Assembly: GCA_030390025.1 (NCBI GenBank)
Contig: JASTWF010000339.1
Coordinates: forward strand, 62,001 to 126,000
DNA from: Squalus acanthias
Taxonomy: Eukaryota
DNA: 64,000 nucleotides
Reading direction: 5' to 3'
Shown here one piece after another: positions 14,930 to 64,000 of this stretch (position 1 is its first letter; every line of letters begins with the position of its first letter). A program made the position numbers and the translations under genes. Under the pieces are notes generated by a model. The model was not told the DNA's origin, did not search any database, and saw only the letters and a program-made list of their open reading frames with translations.

Positions 14930-15633
14930 CAGGTACTGCACGAGTTAGACACAGAGTAAAGCTTCCTCTACACTTTCCCAGCAAACACTCCCAGGGCAGG
15001 TACAGCACGGGTTAGATACAGAGTAAAGCTCGCTCTACACTGTCCCATCAAACACTCCCAGGGCAGGTACAGCACGGGTTAGACACAGAGTAAAGCTCCC
15101 TCTACACTGTCCCAGCAAACACTCCCAGGGCATGTATAGCACGGGTTAGATACAGAGTAAAGCTCCCTCTACACTGTCCCAGCAAACACTCGCGGGGCAG
15201 TTATAGCACGGGTTAGATACAGAGTAAAGCTCCCTCTATACTGTCCCATCAAAAACTCCCAGGGCAGGTACAGCACGGGTTAGATACAGAGTAAAGCTCC
15301 CTCTACACTGTCCCAGCAAACACTCCCGGGGCAGGTATAGCACGGGTTAGATACAGAGTAAAGGTCCCTCTGCACTGTGCCATCAAACACTCCCAGGGCA
15401 GGTACAGCAGAGGTTAGATACAGAGTAAAGCTCGCTCTACACTGTCCCATCAAACACTCCCAGGGCAGGTACAGCGTGGGTTAGATACAGAGTAAAGGTC
15501 CCTCTACACTGTCCCAGCAAACACTCCCGGGGCAGGTATAGCACGGGTTACATACAGAGTAAAGGTCCCTCTACACTGTCCCATCAAACAATCTCAGGGC
15601 AGGTACAACACGGGTATAGATACAGAGTAAAGC
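14930..15633 (-). repeat. 67-bp satellite, short array (about 10 copies)
   Basis: Unit gggcaggtacagcacgggttagatacagagtaaagctccctctacactgtcccatcaaacactccca, the reverse complement of the 53323-59760 unit. Confidence 0.95.
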
Positions 15634-16189: not shown

Positions 16190-16640
16190 AACCCCTAAAC
16201 CTAACACGCTAACCCCAACCACTGACCCCCAAACTGTAACCATAACCCCGTAACCCCATGCCTAACTCGAACACCCTAAGTATAACAACCTAACCCCAAC
16301 CCCTAACCCTCAAACTGTAACCCTAACCCGGTAACACCACCCCAACTCTAACATCCTAACCATAACACCCACACCCCAACCCCTAACTCCCAAACTGTAA
16401 CCCTAACCCGGTAACACCACCCCTAACTCTAACATCCTAAATATAACACCCAACCTCCAACCCCTAACCCCCAAACTGTAACCCTCACCCCGTAACCCCG
16501 CCCCTAACTCTAACATCCTAACCATAACACCCTAGCCCTAACCGCTAACCGAAACTCCGTAACCACACCCCTAACTGTAACATTCGAACCATAACACCCT
16601 AACCACTACCCTAACCTAAACCCTAACCGTAAACTATAAA
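16190..16640 (+). repeat. Degenerate telomere-like (CCCTAA) tract with about 80-bp periodicity
   Basis: Many ccctaac motifs; aaactgtaac recurs at 16231, 16312, 16392 and 16473. Confidence 0.8.
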
Positions 16641-52092: not shown

Positions 52093-52935
52093 GCTGTGAG
52101 AAGGGGAGGATTTACAGACAGGAAACTCAAACCAAACATCATTTTAAGATCTGACAGAGTCACTCCATTCATCAGGACCTGAATATCATCGGCCTTTGAA
52201 TGTGGAAGGAGAAATGTTTGTCTGTTTTGTCTGTGGGAAAAGATTTCAAAAATCAGTGTGACTGGAAAAGCACCGAGACACACACACCCGAGTGAGAGTG
52301 TTCCAGTGCACTGACTGTGGAAAGAGCTTTAACCAGTTACACAGCCTGAAAAAACATCGCATCGTTCACAGCGGGCAGAAACCGTACACGCGTTCTGTGT
52401 GTGGACGAGGTTTCAACTGATCGTCCAACCTGGAGAGACACAAGGACACCCGCACCACGGAGAATCCGTGGAAATGTGGGGACTGTGGGAAGGGATTCAA
52501 CGCAGTCACACTGGGGAGAGACTGTTCACCTGCTCTGTGTGTGGGAACAGATTCGCTCGGTCATCCCACCTGCTGACACACAAGTGACTTCACACTGGGG
52601 AGAGGCCGTTCACCTGCTCTGAGTGTGGGAAGGGATTCACTAACTCCTCCAGCCTCACTTCACACCAACGCGTTCACACTGATAAGAGACCTTTTAAATG
52701 TTCTGAGTGTGAGAAGAGCTTTAAAAGCACAAGGGATCTTCTGACACACCAGCGAGTTCACACTGGGGAGTGGCCGTTCACCTGTTCCGAGTGTGGGAAG
52801 GGATTCACTCAGCCATCCCAGCTGCTGAGACACCAGCGAGTTCACACTGGGGAGAGGCCGTTCACCTGTTCCGTATGTGGGAAGGGATTCGTTCAGTCAT
52901 CCACCCTGCTGAGACACCAGCGAGTTCACAAGTGA
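52093..52935 (+). pseudogene. C2H2 zinc-finger gene B, probable pseudogene
   Basis: Acceptor ccttttacAG 52091-52092; tandem fingers with HTGERPF linkers; TGA stops at 52259, about 52417 and 52585 and a frameshifting deletion at about 52500; four intact fingers 52588-52932; stop 52933-52935. Confidence 0.82.
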
Positions 52936-53322: not shown

Positions 53323-56300
53323 TGTACCTGCCCTGGGAGTGTTTGATGGGACAGTATAGAGGGAGCTTTACTCTGTATCTAACCAGTGCTGTACCGGCCC
53401 TGGGAGTGTTTGATGGGACAGTATAGAGGGAGCTATACTCTGTAACTAACCCCTTCTATAACTGCCCTCGGAGTGTTTGATGGGACAGTATAGAGCGAGC
53501 TTTACTCTGCATGTAACCCGTGCTGTACCTACCCTGGGAGTGTTTGGTGGGACAATGTAGAGGGATCTTTACTCTGTATCTAACCCGTGCTGTACCTGGC
53601 CAAGGAGTGTTTGATGGGATAATGTAGAGGGAGTTTTATTCTGTATCTAACCTGTGCTGTGCCTGCCCTGGGAGTGTTTGATGGGACAGTACAGAGGAAG
53701 CTTTACTCTGTATCTAACCCGTGCTGTACCTGCCCTGTGAATGTTTGATAGGACAGTGTAGAGGGAGCTTTACTCTGCATCTAATCAGTGCTGTAGCTGC
53801 CCTGGGAGTGTTTGATGGGACAGTGTAGTGGGAGCTTCACTCCGCATCTAATCCGTGCTGTACCAGTCCTGGGAGTGTTTGATGGGATAGTGTTGATGGA
53901 GTTTTACTCTGTATCTAACCCGTGCTGTACCTGCCCGGGGAGTGTTTGATGAGACAGTCTCGAGTGAGTTTTACTATGTATCTAACCTGTGCTGTACCTG
54001 CCCTGGGAGTGTTTGATGGGACAGTATACAGCGATCTTTACTCTGCAGCTAACCCGTGCTGTACCTGCCCTGGGAGTGTTTGGTGGGACAGTGCAGGGGG
54101 AGCTTTACTCTGTATTTAACCCGTGCTGTACCAGCCCTGGGAGTGTTTGATGGGACAGTGTGGAGGGAGCTTTACTCTGTATCTAACCCGTGCTGTCCCT
54201 GCCCTGGAGTGTTTGATGGGACAGTGTAACGGGAGTTTTACTCTGCATGTAACCTGTGCTGTACCTGCCCTGGGAGTGTTTGATGGGACAGTGTAGAGGG
54301 AGCTTTGTGCTGTACCTGCCCTGGGAGTGTTTGATGCGACAGTATACAGCGATCTTTATTCTGTAGCTAACGCGTGCTGTACCTACCCTGGGAGTGTTTG
54401 GTGGGACAATGTACAGGGAGCTTTACTCTGTCTCTAACCCGTGCTGTACCTGCCCTGGGAGTGTTTGATGGGATAGTGCAAAGGGAGCTTTATTCTGTAT
54501 CTAACCCGTGCTGTACATGCCCTGGGAGTGTTTGATGGGATAGTGTAAAGGGAGTTTTACTCTGTATGTAATCCGCGCTGTACCTTCCCTGGGAGTGTTT
54601 TACAGGACAGTGTAGAGGGTGCTTTACTCTGTATCTAACCATGCTGTACCTGCTCGGGGAGTGTTTGATGGGACAGTATAGAGGGAGCTATACTCTGTAA
54701 CTAACCCCTTCTATAACTGCCCTCGGAGTGTTTGATGGGACAGTATTTCGCGAGCTTTACTCTGTATGTAACCCGTGCTGTACCTACCCTGGGAGTGTTT
54801 GGTGGGACAATGTAGAGGGATCTTTACTCTGTATCTAACCCGTGCTGTACCTGGCCCAGGAGTGTTTGATGGGATAATGTAGAGGGAGTTTTATTCTGTA
54901 TCTAACCTGTGCTGTGCCTGCCCTGGGAGTGTTTGATGGGACAGTATAGAGGAAGCTTTACTCTGTATCTAACCCGTGCTGTACCTGCCCTGTGAATGTT
55001 TGATGGGACAGTGTAGAGGGAGCTTTACTCTGCATCTAATCCGTGCTGTACCTGCCCTGGGAGTGTTTGATGGGACAGTGTAGTGGGAGCTTTACTCTGC
55101 ATCTAATCCGTGCTGTACCAGCCCTGGGAGTGTTTGATGGGACAGTGTAGAGGGAGCTTTGTGCTGTACCTGCCCTGGGAGTGTTTGATGGGACAGTATA
55201 CAGCGATCTTTACTCTGTAGCTAACCCGTGCTGTACCTACCCTGGGAGTGTTTTGTGGGACAATGTACAGGGAGCTTTACTCTGTCTCTAACCCGTGCTG
55301 TGCCTGCCCTGGGAGTGTTTGATGGGATAGTGTTGATGGAGTTTTACTCTGTATTTAACCCGTGCTGTACCTGCCCTGGGAGTGTTTGATGAGACAGTAT
55401 AGAGGGAGCTTAACTCTGTATCTAACCCGTGCTGTACCTGCCCTGGGAGTGTTTGATGGGACAGTGTAGAGGGAGCTTTACTCGGTATCTAAACCATGCT
55501 GTACGTGCCCTAGAAGTGTTTGATGGGATAGTGTAAAGGGAGCTTTACTCTGTATGTAACCCGCGCTGTACCTTCCCTGGGAGTGTTTGATGGGACAGTG
55601 CAGAGGGAGCTTTACTCTGTCTTTAACCCGTGCTGTAACTGCCCTGCGAGTGTTTGATGGGTCAGTATAGAGGGAGCTTTACTCTGGTACTAACCCCTGC
55701 TGTACCTGCCCTGGGAGTGTTTGATCGGACAGTGTAGAGGGAACTTTACTCTGTATCTAATCCGTGCTGTACCTGCCCTCGGAGTGTTTGATGGGACAGT
55801 ATTGAGCGAGCTTTACTCTGTATGTAACCCGTGCTGTACCTGCCCGGGGAGTGTTTGATGGGACAGTCTCGAGCGAGTTTTACTATGTATCTAACCCGTG
55901 CTGTACCTGCCCTGGGAGTGTTTTACAGGACAGTGCAGAGGGAGCTTTAATCTGTATCTAACCCGTGCTGTACCTGCCCTGTGAATGTTTGATGGGACAT
56001 TGTAGTGGGAGCTTTACTCTGTTTCTAACCCGTGCTGTACCTGCCCGGGGAGTGTTTGATGGGACAGTATCCAGCGAGTTTTACTCTGTATCTAACCCGT
56101 GCTGTAGCTGCCCTGGGAGTTTTGATGAGACAGTATAGAGGGAGCTTTACTCTGTATCTATACGTGCTGTACCTGCCCTGGGAGTGTTTGATGGGATAGT
56201 GTATAGGGAGCTTTACTCTGTATCTGACCCCACACTGTACCTTCCCTGGGAGTGTTTGAAGGGTCAGTGCAGGGGGAGCTTTACTCTGTATTTAACCCGT

Positions 56301-59300
56301 GCTGTTCCTGCCCTGGAAGTGTTTGATGGGACAGCCCAGAGGGAGCTTTACTCTGTATCTAACCCGTGATGTAACTGCCCTGGGAGTGTTTGACGGGACA
56401 GTAGAGAGGGAGCTTTACTCTGGATCTAACCCGTGCTGTACCTGCCCTGCGAGTGTTTTACAGGACAGTGTAGAGGGAGCTTTGCTCTGTATCTAACCAT
56501 GCTGTACCTGCTCGGGGACTGTTTGATCGGACAGTATAGAGGGAGCTATAATCTGTAAATAACCCCTGCTATAATTGCCCACGGAGTGTTTGATGGGACA
56601 GTATTTCGCGAGCTTTACTCTGTATGTAACCCGTGCTGTACCTGCCCTAGCAGTGTTTGATGGGATAATGTAGAGGGAGTTTTATTCTGTATCTAACCTG
56701 TGCTGTGCCTGCCCTGGGAGTGTTTGATGGGACAGTATAGAGGGAGCTTTACTCTGTACCTAACCCGTGCTGTACCTGCCCTGTGAATGTTTGATGGGAC
56801 AGTGTCGAGGGAGCTTTACTCTGTATCTAATCCGTGCTGTACCTGCCCTGTGAGTGTTTGATGGGACAGTGTAGTGGGAGCTTTACTCTGTATCAAATCC
56901 GTGCTGTACCAGCCCTGTGAGTGTTTGATGGGTTAGTGTAAAGGGAGCTTTACTCTGTATCTAACCTGTGCTGCACCTGCCCTGGGAGTGTTTGATGGGA
57001 CAGTGTAGAGGGAGCTTTACTCTGGATCTAACCCGTGCTGTACCTGCCCTGCGAGTGTTTTACAGGACAGTGTAGAGGGTGCTTTACTCTGTATCTAACC
57101 ATGCTGTACCTGCTCGGGGAGTGTTTGATGGGACAGTATAGAGGGAGCTATACTCTGTAACTAACCCCTTCTATAACTGCCCTCGGAGTGTTTGATGGGA
57201 CAGTATTTCGCGAGCTTTACTCTGTATGTAACCCGTGCTGTACCTACCCTGGGAGTGTTTGGTGGGACAATGTAGAGGGATCTTTACTCTGTATCTAACC
57301 CGTGCTGTACCTGGCCCAGGAGTGTTTGATGGGATAATGTAGAGGGAGTTTTATTCTGTATCTGACCTGTGCTGTGCCTGCCCTGGGAGTGTTTGATGGG
57401 ACAGTATAGAGGAAGCTTTACTCTGTATCTAACCCGTGCTGTACCTGCCCTGTGAATGTTTGATGGGACAGTGTAGTGGGAGCTTTACTCTGCATCTAAT
57501 CCGTGCTGTACCTGCCCTGGGAGTGTTTGATGGGACAGTGTAGTGGGAGCTTTACTCTGCATCTAATCCGTGCTGTACCAGCCCTGGGAGTGTTTGATGG
57601 GATAGTGTTGATGGAGTTTTACTCTGTATCTAACCCGTGCTGTACCTGCCCTGGGAGTGTTTGATGGGACAGTGTAGAGGGAGCTTTACTCTGTATCTAA
57701 CCCGTGCTGTCCCAGCCCTGGGAGTGTTTGCTGGGATAGTGTCGTTGAAGTTTTACTCTGTATCTAACCCGTGCTGTACCTGCCCGGGGAGTGTTTGATG
57801 GGACAGTCTCGAGCGAGTTTTACTATGTATCTAACCCGTGCTGTACCTCCCCTGGGCGTGTTTGATGGGACAGTGTAGAGGGAGCTTTACTCTGTATCTA
57901 ACCCGTGCTGTACCTGCCTTAGGAGTGTTTGATGGGACAGTGTAGAGGGATCTTTAATCTTTATCTAACCCATGCTGTACCTGCCCCAGGAGTGTTTGAT
58001 GGGACAGATTAGAGCGAGCTTTACTCGAAATCTAACCCATGCTGTACCTGCCCCAGGAGTGTTTGATGGGACAATGTAGAGGGAGCTTTACTCTGTATCT
58101 AACCCGTGCTGTACCTGCCCTGGGAGTGTTTGATGGGACAGTGTAGAGGGAGCTTTACTCTGTATTTAACCTGTGCAGTACCTGCCCTGGGAGTGTTTGA
58201 TGGGACAGTGTGGAGGGAGCTTTGTGCTGTACCTGCCCTGGGAGTGTTTGATGGGACAGTATACAGCGATCATTACTCTGTAGCTAACCCGTGCTGTACC
58301 TACCCTGGGAGTGTTTGGTGTGACAATGTACAGGGAGCTTTACTCTGTATTTAACCCGTGCTGCACCTGCCCTGGGATTGTTTGATGGGACAGTGTAGAG
58401 GGAGCTTTACTCTGTATCTAACCCGTGCTGTACCTGCCCTGGGAGTGTTTGATGGGACAGCACAGAGGGAGCTTTACTCTGTATCTAACCCGTGCTGTAC
58501 CTGCCCTTGGAGTGTTTGATGGGACAGTAGAGAGGGAGCTTTACTCTGGATCTAACCCATGCTGTGCCTGCCCTGCGAGTGTTTTACAGGACAGTGTAGA
58601 GGGTGCTTTACTCTGTATCTAACCATGCTGTACCTGCTCGGGGAGTGTTTGATGGGACACTGTAGTGGGAGCTTTACTCTGTATCTGATCCGTGCTGTAC
58701 CAGCCCTGGGAGTGTTTGATGGGACACTGTAGTGGGAGCTTTACTCTGTATCTGATCCGTGCTGTACCAGCCCTGGGAGTGTTTTACAGGACAGTGTAGA
58801 GGGAGCTTTACTCTGTATCTAACCCGTGCTGTACCTGCCCTGTGAATGTTTGATGGGACAGTGTAGTGGGAGCTTTACTCTGTATCTGACCCGTGCTGTA
58901 CCTGCCCGGGGAGTGTTTGACGGGACAGTATCCAGCGAGTTTTACTCTGTATCTAACCCGTGCTGTAGCTGCCCTGGGAGTTTTGATGAGACAGTATAGA
59001 GGGAGCTTTACTCTGTATCTAACCCGTGCTGTACCTGCCCTGGGAGTGTTTGATGGGATAGTGTATAGGGAGCTTTACTCTGTATGTAACCTTTGCTGTA
59101 CCTGCCCTGGGAGTGTTTGATGGGACAGTACAGAGGGAGCTTTGCTCTGTATCTGACCCCATACTGTACCTGCCCTGGGAGTGTTTGATGGGATAGTGTA
59201 AAGGGAGTTTTACTCTGTATGTGAACCGCGTTGTACCTTCCCTGGGAGTGTTTGATGGGACAGCACAGAGGGAGCTTTGCTCTGTATTTAACCCGTGCTG

Positions 59301-59760
59301 TACCTGCCCTGGGAGTGTTTGATGGGACAGCCCAGAGGGAGCTTTACTCTGTATCTAACCCGTGCTGTACCTGCCCTGGGAGTGTTTGACGGGACAGTAG
59401 AGAGGGAGCTTTGCTCTGGATCTAACCCGTGCTTTACCTGCCCTGCGAGTGTTTTACAGGACAGTGTAGAGGGAGCTTTACTCTGTATCTAACCATGCTG
59501 TACCTGCTCGGGGACTGTTTGATGGGACAGCATAGAGGGAGCTATAATCTGTAAATAACCCCTGCTATAACTGCCCTCGGAGTGTTTGATGGGACAGTAT
59601 TTCGCGAGCTTTACTCTGTATGTAACCCGTGCTGTACCTGCCCTAGCAGTGTTTGATGGGATAATGTAGAGGGAGTTTTATTCTGTATCTAACCTGCGCT
59701 GTGCCTGCCCTGGGAGTGTTTGATGGGACAGTATAGAGGGAGCTTTACTCTGTACCTAAC
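53323..59760 (+). repeat. 67-bp satellite array (about 6.4 kb)
   Basis: Unit tgggagtgtttgatgggacagtgtagagggagctttactctgtatctaacccgtgctgtacctgccc, with recurring variant blocks. Confidence 0.97.
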
Positions 59761-62572
59761 TTTCCTTTTCTGGGGGTCTGGGTTGTTTGCAGCGCACACA
59801 AGACAGTTTGCACAGAACTCGCGGACCTGTTCCCTGAGCCCTGGCCACCATCCCGCTTGCTCTACCCGTTGCCAGGTAACCTCGGGCCCGGGGTGCCCTG
59901 CCCCTGGTCCCTCGTGAGCCAACTGGAGGAATTCCCTCCTGTGCTGCTGCGGCACAACCCACTGCTCCTCGCGGAACAGCATGCCTTCCTTAACTGAGAG
60001 GGTTGCCGTACTGTACGGACCCTCTACCTGCTTCCCCTCAGCAATGGTTTTGAGGACTGCTTTTAGGGCGGGATCCTGGTTCTGGACGGTCTTAAGGTCT
60101 AGGGGCAATGCTACCCTGGGGTTCCCGGGATTCCCGTCCCTGCCTTGGATCGCTGCCATGGGTCTGGTCCCATAGGGGTCCCAGAAAATGCCGTTGCGGG
60201 CACCTTCCCTGGCTAGCGCATCCGCCTGCTGGTTGCCCTCCCCACGGGGCTCTGTGGAGGAGTGAGCTTTCACCTTATGGATGAAAATCTCCCCTTCCTC
60301 CCCTACTGCTGCTAGGATCTTTTTCAGCAAGGGCTTCACCGTTAAAGGTCGCCCGTCCGCGGAGGTGTATCCACGGCGGGACCAAATGGCCAGGTATTCC
60401 GTACACGAATTGCAGGTGAACATACTGTCCGAGCAAATCGTGTATGGGGTTGGGAAAATGTCTGGGTGGGTAACAACGTACACCACAGCAGACAGCTCAG
60501 CCTGCTGCGCGCTCATGGTGCTAGGGAGCTTGATCGCCAGGGCAAGGTTTGCCGCAGGGTCATAAACTCCACACCCCGTGAGTCGTTCGCCAGCAGATAC
60601 TGTGCTAGAACCATCAACATAAATCTCGCGCCCAGTGGGATGTATCCCGGCCCGCAAACCTATGTTGACGTCCCACACCCCTTCCACCGAACATCGGTGG
60701 GCTGTACCGGGGTATACCAAATTGGCCGCAACTGGGCTCGCAAAGACCTTTAACTCTAAGATCCATCTGGGAAAGAAGAAGGGTCCAGCGCGCAATACGC
60801 ACGCTGCTTACGGTCCCATCTTTAATCCTCCCATCTAGAAGCATCTTAGTTGGTGTGTGATGGGTGAGGAGAGTGATGGGAGAGAGCCCTGTGAAGATCG
60901 CTGATCTTTTCACAGCCCAATGCGTGGCTAAAAGGTGCCTTTCGCAATTGGAAAAACTTCTCTCCACATCCGTTAACACCCTGGACGAATAGACAACCGG
61001 CCTCAGCTTGCCGTGACGCTCTTGGAGCAGCACAGCGCTCAAGCTGTCCCCGCTGGCAGCTACCTCCAGGAAAAACTCCTTCCCCCCATCTATGGCCCCT
61101 AAAGCTGGCGCGGTCTGCAGATCCCTTTTTAACTTCTCGAAGGCTGCTTGGCAGCCCTCGTCCCAAGACAACTCCACTCCCTTATGGAGGAGTCGGAGGA
61201 GCGGCGCCGCTGTGGCCGCATAGTCTTCGATAAAATCCCTGCAGTAACCGGTCAGTCCCAAGAAGGACCTCACACCCCTTATGTTGTTAGGAATCGGTAA
61301 CTCTTGCACCGACTCCCTCCTAGCCTTATCTATGGCTCTTTCCCCAGCGCGAATGGTCAGCCCCAGGAATTTTACTTCCTGCTGACTGATACGTGCTTTC
61401 TTAGGGTTTACTTTAAAACCCTTTCTCGCTAGCAGCTCCAATAACTCGTCCAGCAGTGGTCCATGCTCCTCCCTTGAATCCGTAAATAGGAGCAAATCAT
61501 CCACGTACTGCACTATCTGATTGGGCTGACTAAACTCCTTTAAACTTCCTGCCATACACTGATGGAAAATACTGGGGCTATTGTGGAAACCCTGTGGCAG
61601 ACAGTTCCATGTGTACTGTTGTCCTTTGAAAGTAAAGGCAAACTTGTACTGGTCCTCTCGCCGCAGCGGGATGGACCAAAAACCGTTCGAGATATCCAGC
61701 ACCGTGAACGTGGTCGCGGACGCTGGGATACTCCCTATTAGGTCAGCAACTGCTGCTACCGTGGGTGCGCAGGCGGGAATGTTACTGTTAAGGACTCTGT
61801 AGTCCACCGTGGCCCTCCACGAATTATCCGGCTTCCTAACCGGCCATAATGGGGAGTTCACGTGTGTGGCTATCGGCCTCAACACGCCCTGCTGCACCAA
61901 GGAGGACATTGCTGTCTCCATATCGGGTTCTGCTTCTTTGGGGAAGTTATACTGTTTTTGGGGCCGGGTCATGGGGTCCCCATCTACGCTGACCTCAAAC
62001 CCGGTAACCCTCCCACAATCGTGCTTGTGGGTTGCAAACGCGTGCATATTATCTGACACGTACGTTTGCATGTCCGTTGGGACATCTGCGACCATAAGCC
62101 CGAGGTCGTAGCCTCCGGATGGCTGCATGGTACACAGGACCCCTGTTTCTTCCTCCCCCGGAATTACCACTACCTCGCCTTTTTCACTCTTAGCCCCCCA
62201 GAGACAATGATTTCTGAGGTCCACGAGGATCCCGTGTCCTGATAGGAGATCGGACCCGAGGATACCTCTTCCACCCCCCTCCTGCCATTCCATCAGTATG
62301 CACTTCCACTTGATGTGAAGTGCCCCCAAACGAATGGATAGTGGAAAGGAGAACGCGCCAGCCTGTTCTTTTCCCGTGAACCCCGCTAATGTGAATGGGA
62401 CCTTGGTAGATAGCGGTGAGTCAAAAGGGCTATCTGTATGAATCACGGTGCAAGAAGCTCCCGTGTCCAACAAATAACTACCCTTCTGTTTCTCTACCTC
62501 CATCTCCACCAAGGGTCGCTTCCACGCATCATAGCTGAGCGGACACAGGTAGACGGGCTGCGCGGGCTCTAG
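59761..62572 (-). pseudogene. pol: pol (protease, RT, tether, RNase H, integrase N-terminus)
   Basis: LLDTGA; NSPLWPVRKPD, LDISNGFW, LPQGF, YVDD; IYVDGS / QAEL / SDS / ADALA; HEGPGAGH...CANCLVC; one frameshift near 60730. Confidence 0.88.
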
Positions 62573-64000
62573 TCATTGGGTATGGTTAGACGGTCCTGCG
62601 GCACCTACGGGGCCGGTAGCAACCGCCACCTTTCCATGTGCACTCATGAAGTTGCGCATGGCTCCCAACACTGATTCGAGGTCGTTGGGAGGGGTGGGTG
62701 CACTAGCTTCCCTAGCAGAGACAGGCATCTAGGCTCGGGCTGCGGGATTTTTATCCCTGGAATTCTTCCAAGGGTTCCTGCAGTTCTCGCGCCAGTGCCC
62801 TGTCCTCCCACACCCGTAACAAGCATTATTTGCCTGCGGGGCGCGGTTACCCTCCTGATGCCACTCCCCTTGAGCCGGGGCTGCGGGTCGTACCTCATGT
62901 ACTTTTCCCTTAAGGGGACGTGTTCCCATACCCCTTATGTTGCGATATCCTATCGTGAGTCGATTCAAGACCGACTCTTCCGTAATGTTGGGGTCATTGG
63001 GATCAAACCACGCTTTTGCCTGCTCTCTGACGGCTGGTAAACTGTTGGCTACTATGCACCTAAGCCAATGATTTAAACCGGCGCCGTCCACATCGTCGCG
63101 CTCTGGCGCACCTGGACAGCTGCGCTGATATACTGGCCACAGCCTGTCGGCAAAAACCTTCGGGGGTTCTCCCTCCATCTGCACTGTCTGTCCCACTCTA
63201 GCAAACGGACCTTCATCGTCCGCCCCCAACACTTCTAGGACCTCATTTTTCAATGCCTCATAAGTCTTGGTTCCCCTCTTGCTCTCGTCCGAGAGACACT
63301 GAAGGATTGAACTGCCTAACGAAAACAACAGCATTTTTGCTGTTTCCCCATCATCGCAGCCGTTGATGGCTGCGGTTTGCTCAATTTCTCTGAAATGTAC
63401 GGAAGGGTCGTCTGACTCGGTCAGCTTCCGTACGTGATTTATCATAACTCTCAGCTGGTGTGAGCTGTGAGGCAACACAAGCTGGTTGAGGAGAACCCCT
63501 TCTTCCTCCCCGTTTCTGTTTGGGCCCCTTTTTATACCCGTAACCGGATACAACGGTCCCTTTTCCACTTCTCTCTCAGTGGGCTCTTTCGTTTCTTCCA
63601 CTACTTCCTCCCTTACCCAGGTTTCCGAATAGCTGGGTGGCGCGGAGGGCGCAGTGGCTAATACTTCCTTTGCTTTACTTGGTGGGGATTTCTGAAACTC
63701 CTCATTTACTAGCGGCTGGTGCGCTGACGGACTGATAAGGCACACCATGCCGTGCGCTTTGTTCACGGCCTTTTTGAGGTGCTCTATCTCCTGTTGGCAG
63801 GCGCTATGATCGGCCCCCTGAAACTTATCCTCAAGGGCCAACTTATATGCCGCCCTAACCCCCGTTAAGCTCTCTTCCTGGGTTCTTATCTGGGCAGCTT
63901 GGCGGGCACATCGTTCCTTTAGTCTGCCCTCACTTAACTTTGCCTCAGTGACCTGGCACTCGAGGTAATCTATCCTTGTTTTATGGTGACTGGTGATTTC
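62573..64000 (-). pseudogene. gag: gag (coiled-coil-like N-part, putative capsid region, CCHC knuckle)
   Basis: Frame open from the window end; CYGCGRTGHWRENC; internal TAG at 62729-62731, then open to TGA at 62573-62575. Confidence 0.8.

Follow-up and report, generated by a model that had tools for sequence, protein, structure and literature searches.

How does a retrovirus reach pol when gag ends at a stop codon in the same frame? The question is raised by an endogenous retrovirus on the minus strand of a 64,000-nt stretch of Squalus acanthias DNA (assembly GCA_030390025.1, contig JASTWF010000339.1, positions 62,001 to 126,000), referred to here as the window and numbered from its first letter. 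An earlier note, made from the letters of the window, had proposed that gag and pol are joined by readthrough of a UGA followed by CUAG. Following up this proposal, we find that the TGA is probably the true gag end of the family and that Pol is very probably made by readthrough of it, as judged from the sequence of the junction and its relatives and from known cases. The features on which the argument turns are as follows.

62576..64000, minus strand: gag, 3' 475 codons, with one TAG in this copy; 5' end past the window edge (frame reading and relatives)
62780..62821, minus strand: single CCHC zinc knuckle (CX2CX4HX4C) of the nucleocapsid, 68 codons 5' of the TGA (sequence)
62729..62731, minus strand: TAG nonsense codon, private to this copy (contigs of all four runs and Gag relatives)
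62576..62728, minus strand: Gag tail, 51 codons 3' of the TAG, kept in relatives (helix ...MRNFMSAHGKVAVATG, terminal Gln; alignment with P0283, P0284, P0287 and P0288)
62573..62575, minus strand: gag stop codon TGA with CAA before it, putative readthrough site (sequence and relatives)
62569..62572, minus strand: CTAG, type II or OPRL1-type readthrough context (sequence; definition in PMC13517186 and PMC4132726)
62459..62467, minus strand: protease active-site DTG, its D being codon 36 past the stop (sequence and Pfam)
62354..62564, minus strand: long rod-like hairpin predicted by folding, spanning about +12 to +222 with the U of UGA as +1

The gag-pol junction and the stop that ends gag

Read directly on the minus strand, the junction is ACC CAA TGA CTA GAG CCC, with the TGA at 62575-62573 and the CTAG at 62572-62569, just as the earlier note had it. 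Counted from 64000, the gag frame meets stops at TAG 62731 and TGA 62575 and then none until 60616; past the TGA it stays open for 652 codons and runs without a frameshift into LEPAQPVYLCPL...LLDTGA, a continuation borne out by the stop scan and by Pfam matches to RVP, RVT_1 and RT_RNaseH_2. The stop is followed by CTA, which places it in the type II readthrough class (UGA then CUA or CGG). Among the 2399 TGA trinucleotides on both strands of the window, 33 are followed by CTA or CGG and two by CTAG, and the base composition of the provirus gives a probability of 0.004 for CTAG; given these counts and this composition, such a context would be unlikely at the sole stop on the gag-pro border.

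Contigs from four public runs (four samples from four studies, of which run X1 is a possible source of the window) were aligned to 62300-63000. All of the contig depth departs from the window within the TAG codon in each of the four runs (8, 21, 13 and 3 contigs), so this stop is private to the copy. No indels occur in the region among the contigs of the four runs, and the shared gag-pol frame is thus a trait of the family rather than an artefact of one copy. No variants at TGA 62573-62575 are found among the best 40 of 104 difference rows, each of which reaches at least 50% in some run, and the ranking suggests that any remaining variants there are minority variants. Contigs of diverged subfamilies (2, 6 and 2 contigs in three DNA runs) follow the window through pol as far as 62576 and part from it in gag; by eye, the gag frame of their loose ends is open and an A is kept before the stop.

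Protein relatives tell the same story at greater distance. We examined six Gag relatives (P0283-P0288), from the skate Rhinoraja longicauda (56% identical) and further contigs, with P0283-P0285 48-57% identical to the window. Four of the six extend beyond the place of the TAG, keep the Gag tail (MRxxMxAxGK...) and terminate in ...PQ where the aligned window has its HTQ-stop; the other two stop 5' of the knuckle, and none enters the protease. The distance from knuckle to stop is 68 codons in the window, in P0284 and in the snakehead-like viral locus L006, and 58 in P0283. Three points limit this assignment: the gag end of the relatives was compared at the level of protein, and not of the stop codon and its 3' context; three of the four full-tail relatives are near-identical skate copies, leaving two independent lineages; and conservation of the CTAG was seen in contigs of the window's own family only, among the best 40 of 104 rows. 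Taken together, the alignments support the TGA as the family's likely true gag end and the TAG as a later, copy-specific nonsense change. This is what the earlier note had anticipated in calling the TAG at 62729-62731 a later nonsense mutation and in asking for other copies that have a sense codon there and conserve the TGACTAG.

Low-depth contigs of run X1 skip 339 nt (62421-62761) or 81 nt (62679-62761) and represent family deletion variants that span the junction or lie close to it. Further upstream, Gag carries APSAPPSY at 63620-63660 (minus strand), which we take to be overlapping PSAP- and PPxY-like late-domain motifs; by eye, PSAP also stands just 5' of the stop in two of the three diverged-subfamily tails among the contigs.

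Routes from gag to pol

In an active family, an unspliced gag-pol message would be translated, with most ribosomes stopping at the UGA behind the Gag tail and releasing Gag, and a minority decoding the UGA with a near-cognate tRNA and continuing in frame to give Gag-Pro-Pol. The UGA-CUAG context would, with high probability, give a few per cent readthrough, to judge from known cases: it drives readthrough in HEK293T reporters, where a purine is preferred at -1 (PMC4132726), and its basal readthrough is put at at least ~1.3% (PMC13517186). The earlier note had called UGA-CUAG a strong readthrough context and the upstream CAA favourable. Of its proposal that Pol is made by UGA readthrough, the frame, the context and the conserved gag end held up, and the readthrough step itself we infer from the known cases.

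The layout beyond the stop is what such a fusion would have. The stop lies 34 codons from xxDTG, compared with 25-39 in the 16 retroviral loci listed (these include two duplicate pairs and L014, whose frame is broken; L005 and L018 gave no protease); the junction stop in the 16 is TAG in 15 and TGA in one, with TGA-CTA in none. The Pfam RVP match begins at codon 17 past the stop and the first Met is codon 24, preceded by an (A/C)PL...RP stretch shared with P0005, P0006, P0121 and L006. A single frameshift cannot join gag to pol here, because the two already share one frame. None of the 40 listed difference rows falls in 62513-62582, where 4 would be expected; this density is confounded by protein constraint, by a repeat filter at 62483-62510 and by the restriction to the best 40 of 104 rows, and is not used as support.

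Alternatively, splicing could remove the TGA from the message for Pol, or pol could have a separate start, as in foamy viruses, which express pol via a spliced RNA with its own start (PMC8278194). The lineage is deep-branching, near foamy-like and snakehead-like viruses, and a pyrimidine-rich CAG lies 37 nt past the stop, among the top 4 of 178 YAG sites of the provirus:

62535..62536, minus strand: AG of the best candidate splice acceptor of the junction, pyrimidine fraction 0.72 (sequence scan)

Splicing to this acceptor would remove the conserved CPL stretch, however, and the first AUG past it is out of frame, with the in-frame Met24 inside the protease domain. Moreover, foamy viruses start pol separately and in a frame other than that of gag, unlike the window, where gag and pol share a frame and a readthrough context, and the Gag of the window has a CCHC knuckle that is missing from foamy-like Gag (PMC5210030). 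No splice joint appears in one presumed RNA run (39 contigs), which is a weak test. We consider this route quite improbable.

It is also conceivable that gag and pol were formerly fused, that the TGA arose between them as a nonsense mutation and was inherited, that the family spread by means of helper enzymes, and that the CTAG is there by chance. Ten of 24 lokiretrovirus consensuses are indeed annotated as fused gag-pol. The same Gag end is nevertheless kept in relatives just 48-56% identical, the closest Pol relative, P0001, retains a 1145-aa open pol right past the junction, and the composition-based probability of CTAG is the low value given above, which together make an inherited lesion very improbable.

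Re-initiation or internal initiation at the in-frame AUG 62503 is extremely improbable: both the window and P0001 have a Met in roughly this position, but it is absent there in P0005, P0006, P0121, L006, L002 and L003, starting at it would lose the first protease strand (the Pfam match begins 7 codons earlier), the conserved protease codons 5' of it imply that the codons just past the TGA are translated, and a Pol unfused to Gag needs another packaging route. Of these routes, readthrough of the UGA is thus the favoured one.

The predicted downstream hairpin

Alphaviral readthrough signals of the same class are followed by a long stem-loop, and folding predicts one here as well. Pairing of +16..+24 with +208..+217 is stable in all three folding contexts, and the lowest pairs shift register from one context to another. 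When 500 nt are folded, the predicted stem starts at +12, leaving an 8-nt spacer, and its partner is +208..+222. Such a spacer is also reported for VEEV (Venezuelan equine encephalitis virus), tobraviruses and MuLV (murine leukemia virus) (PMC3159437, PMC13517186). A 230-nt fold reaches -100.7 kcal/mol (z -6.35, with 0 of 200 shuffles as good) and a 206-nt fold z -4.68. Of 41 segments of 200 nt along the provirus, the one at the TGA ranks first, as it does among 16 along pol under a protein-preserving null (z -3.96).

A number of observations count against a functional hairpin. Folds of 50, 70, 100, 133 and 146 nt are not significant (z -0.9 to +1.3), so that the stimulatory structure which the earlier note had suggested looking for in the 100 nt downstream does not appear at that length and the signal emerges only in longer folds; the hairpin length was itself selected post hoc. 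Negative z-scores are found in 40 of the 41 provirus segments, two others reaching -4.6; the private TAG also has a long stem in two of three contexts; and 2-4 of 134 control positions score equally well. Six displayed variants fall at paired sites, of which four keep the pair, two break it and none is two-sided, so covariation is not shown. The same folding method also leaves the pseudoknot of MoMLV (Moloney murine leukemia virus; L012) non-significant. On balance, we give the predicted hairpin an even chance of being functional, and placed some 8 nt past the stop, its ~210 nt could equally well raise the readthrough rate, as in VEEV and Sindbis virus, or leave it unaffected.

An H-type pseudoknot is not favoured: one weak candidate was found, with 11 pairs of which 5 are G-C, against 12 pairs and 10 G-C for L012. 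Elsewhere, the SSSV-like locus L015:2912-3094 has a predicted long-range stem pairing +5..+22 with +166..+182, stable in all three contexts.

Identity of the element and comparison with known systems

The remainder of the provirus and its flank are laid out as follows.

60750..62572, minus strand: first part of pol, in the gag frame, with protease, reverse transcriptase (RT; QYVDD) and tether RNase H (Pfam)
60734..60768, minus strand: pol frame break in the window copy, across which P0001 is open (tblastn of P0001)
59761..60768, minus strand: second part of pol, in a second frame, carrying another RNase H and the zinc-binding domain of the integrase, whose core is missing (Pfam)
53323..59760, no strand assigned: 67-nt tandem satellite adjoining and truncating the integrase (repeat analysis)

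Pol thus has the order protease, RT, tether, RNase H, integrase with a dual RNase H (Pfam RVP, RVT_1, RT_RNaseH_2, RNase_H and Integrase_H2C2), and the provirus is cut inside the integrase at 59761 by the satellite. Its 5' end runs beyond the window, and env, which in lokiretroviruses encodes a paramyxovirus-F-like Env, is absent from the window. With its private TAG, pol frame break and truncated integrase, the window copy is dead. P0001, whose 1145-aa open pol begins just past the junction, is the closest Pol (83% identical); identity is 66% for a fragment of RT from the shark Heptranchias perlo and 44-46% for 'NYNRIN-like' models of frog and coelacanth. Summed contig depth, a measure of depth and not of copy number, runs from thousands to hundreds of thousands in the DNA runs. 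The family is a high-copy endogenous retrovirus of a cartilaginous fish. No other copy of the element lies in the 64-kb window. Scanning metagenome and viral contigs with single proteins turned up no relatives, and scanning with alignments yielded 5 and 13 loci, all outside the family of the window.

An RT tree was built from 55 rows, chosen by hand among 274 that covered enough of the RT, together with L002 and L003; it contains no rows of class II or ERV-L. The RT of the window falls on the retrovirus side and not with Ty3/gypsy (a 99/98 branch), and its best PDB matches are murine leukemia virus and foamy virus at 1e-61 to 1e-54, compared with 1e-42 for Ty3. The class I rows are united by a 100/99 branch that excludes the window, and rows with lokiretroviral motifs, recognised by motif only, are likewise separate (100/99). 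The window sits in a basal region that lacks resolution and also holds the snakehead-like L006, with no supported grouping beyond P0001; a quicker tree placed it with frog and coelacanth rows at a Shimodaira-Hasegawa-like approximate likelihood-ratio support (SH-aLRT) of 97, a grouping not kept in the 55-row tree. As judged from these sequences, the element branches deep in the retroviruses, outside both class I and the lokiretroviruses. Class I (gamma- or epsilonretroviral) membership was rejected on the position of the RT outside that clade, though an in-frame gag stop between knuckle and protease would fit it; lokiretroviral membership on the RT motifs and tree position; and foamy or foamy-like membership on the CCHC knuckle at 62821-62780 and the shared frame of gag and pol.

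Around the provirus, the 67-nt satellite comprises ~96 units (53323-59760), and an inverted array of the same unit lies at 14930-15633, 38-42 kb away. Beside the satellite, tandem 84-nt units at 52498-52930 code for C2H2 zinc fingers with the HTGERPF linker, and a degenerate (CCCTAA)-like array, telomere-like and interstitial, occupies 16194-16550.

A UGA as such is not new at a retroviral gag stop. The earlier note had set the UGA against the UAG that gamma- and epsilonretroviruses read through. UAG is used by MoMLV, but SSSV (UGAAGA), ZFERV (UGACGA) and RMEV (UGAAGU) have UGA at the gag-pol junction (PMC13517186), and XtERV-S has an in-frame TGA there (PMC8278194). These four resemble the window in that pol is in frame past a UGA gag stop and readthrough is presumed. 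They differ in context, none of the three listed hexamers being UGA-CUA, and the SSSV-like L015 groups with class I, distant in the RT tree. The available portion of the 2026 review gives UAGGGA, UAGGAU, UAGGGC, UGAAGA, UGACGA and UGAAGU as retroviral contexts and assigns UGACUA to alphaviruses and triatoviruses (PMC13517186), leaving the type II UGA-CUA context unlisted for retroviruses. In the open literature (subscription papers, Repbase and supplements may differ), we found no description of a gag-pol junction with UGA-CUA in a retrovirus or lokiretrovirus, none by term search in the available text of PMC7947760, PMC9040795, PMC8922424, PMC13524379 and PMC12440569, and no TGACTAG in the available elephant-shark endogenous retrovirus supplement (PMC4422223). 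Among the other loci, a dual-RNase-H retrovirus with RT motif YCDD (L003:2915, L004:2467) has the junction TAG CAA TTA, the exact type I readthrough nonamer, like that of tobacco mosaic virus, said to be absent from animal viruses (PMC13517186); a related YCDD retrovirus (L002:1280, the same as L001:159) has an in-frame TAG CGC CAG, outside the three listed context types.

Snakehead retrovirus (SnRV) and its kin have been described as clade Huo (Xu et al. 2018, PMC6001957) and as CmiERV lineage I (PMC4422223). L006, the best viral-contig match (E 4e-94), is like the window in its single knuckle 68 codons before the stop and its deep-branching RT, and unlike it in having UAG-GGC, which is the context given for SnRV (PMC13517186), an RT 43% identical and no supported grouping; its Gag gave no significant match outside the knuckle.

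Lokiretroviruses share the dual RNase H (PMC7947760) but carry the RT motifs PLSRWPM and CPFGY.NSP where the window has PACAPTV and LPQGFHNSP, and stand apart in the RT tree (100/99 and 99/98). By eye, 6 of the 24 published consensuses have TGA as the gag stop and CTA right after it, with the annotated pol in the same frame (CTAG in Ofa, Cne, Pyo and Sau; CTAA in Dcl and Lro); Bsp gag ends in TGA and Tfu in TAA (PMC7947760 supplement). Among the 10 fused consensuses, Pfl has CGA-CTA at the equivalent place; six of the 24, without gag annotation, were left out of the junction reading. The terms readthrough, stop codon and frameshift have no matches in the available main text (PMC7947760). It is possible, if rather unlikely, that type II readthrough, with UGA-CUA and a long 3' hairpin, was the ancestral retroviral way to express pol. 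If so, the lineage of the window and the lokiretroviruses, which are sister to retroviruses, would both have retained it; some lokiretroviral lineages would switch to a sense codon in the manner of alphaviruses (Loki-Pfl, CGA-CTA); and frameshifting, foamy splicing and the gammaretroviral UAG with pseudoknot would be later derivations. It is likelier that a short, strong context was reached by convergence.

To our knowledge, the gammaretroviral UAG with its pseudoknot is the one retroviral readthrough signal to have been dissected. The cis-elements of fish retroviruses, including SSSV, are called unclear in the 2026 review (PMC13517186). The present family offers a retroviral junction with the type II signal of alphaviruses and vertebrate genes plus a predicted long hairpin, which makes it testable with reporters; with the lokiretroviral TGA-CTA junctions, it makes the setting of the Gag to Gag-Pol ratio in the earliest retroviruses testable by comparison. 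The in-frame stop also explains why automatic annotation breaks such elements up, giving one gene for gag and a truncated 'NYNRIN-like' pol.

Two further systems are comparable in mechanism. In MoMLV, as in the window, an in-frame stop stands past the Gag knuckle and short of the protease DTG, and structure begins at +12 (predicted in the window; PMC13517186 for MoMLV), but its stop is UAG-GGA (type III) followed by a 50-nt H-type pseudoknot, whereas the window has UGA-CUAG and a predicted ~210-nt hairpin, and its RT lies outside the class I clade of the gammaretroviruses. In alphaviruses, the nsP3/nsP4 junction of Sindbis virus has UGA-CUA with a 177-nt stem-loop from +16, and that of VEEV has UGA-CGG with a 126-nt stem-loop from +12 (PMC3159437, PMC13517186). 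They are like the window in their type II context and in a long 3' stem-loop that lies past a ~8-nt spacer and controls the level of a polymerase (as predicted for the window); they are unlike it in belonging to an unrelated family and in having stems backed by mutagenesis and covariation. By analogy with both, the junction of the window most likely works like gammaretroviral gag-pol readthrough, with a signal of the alphavirus type.

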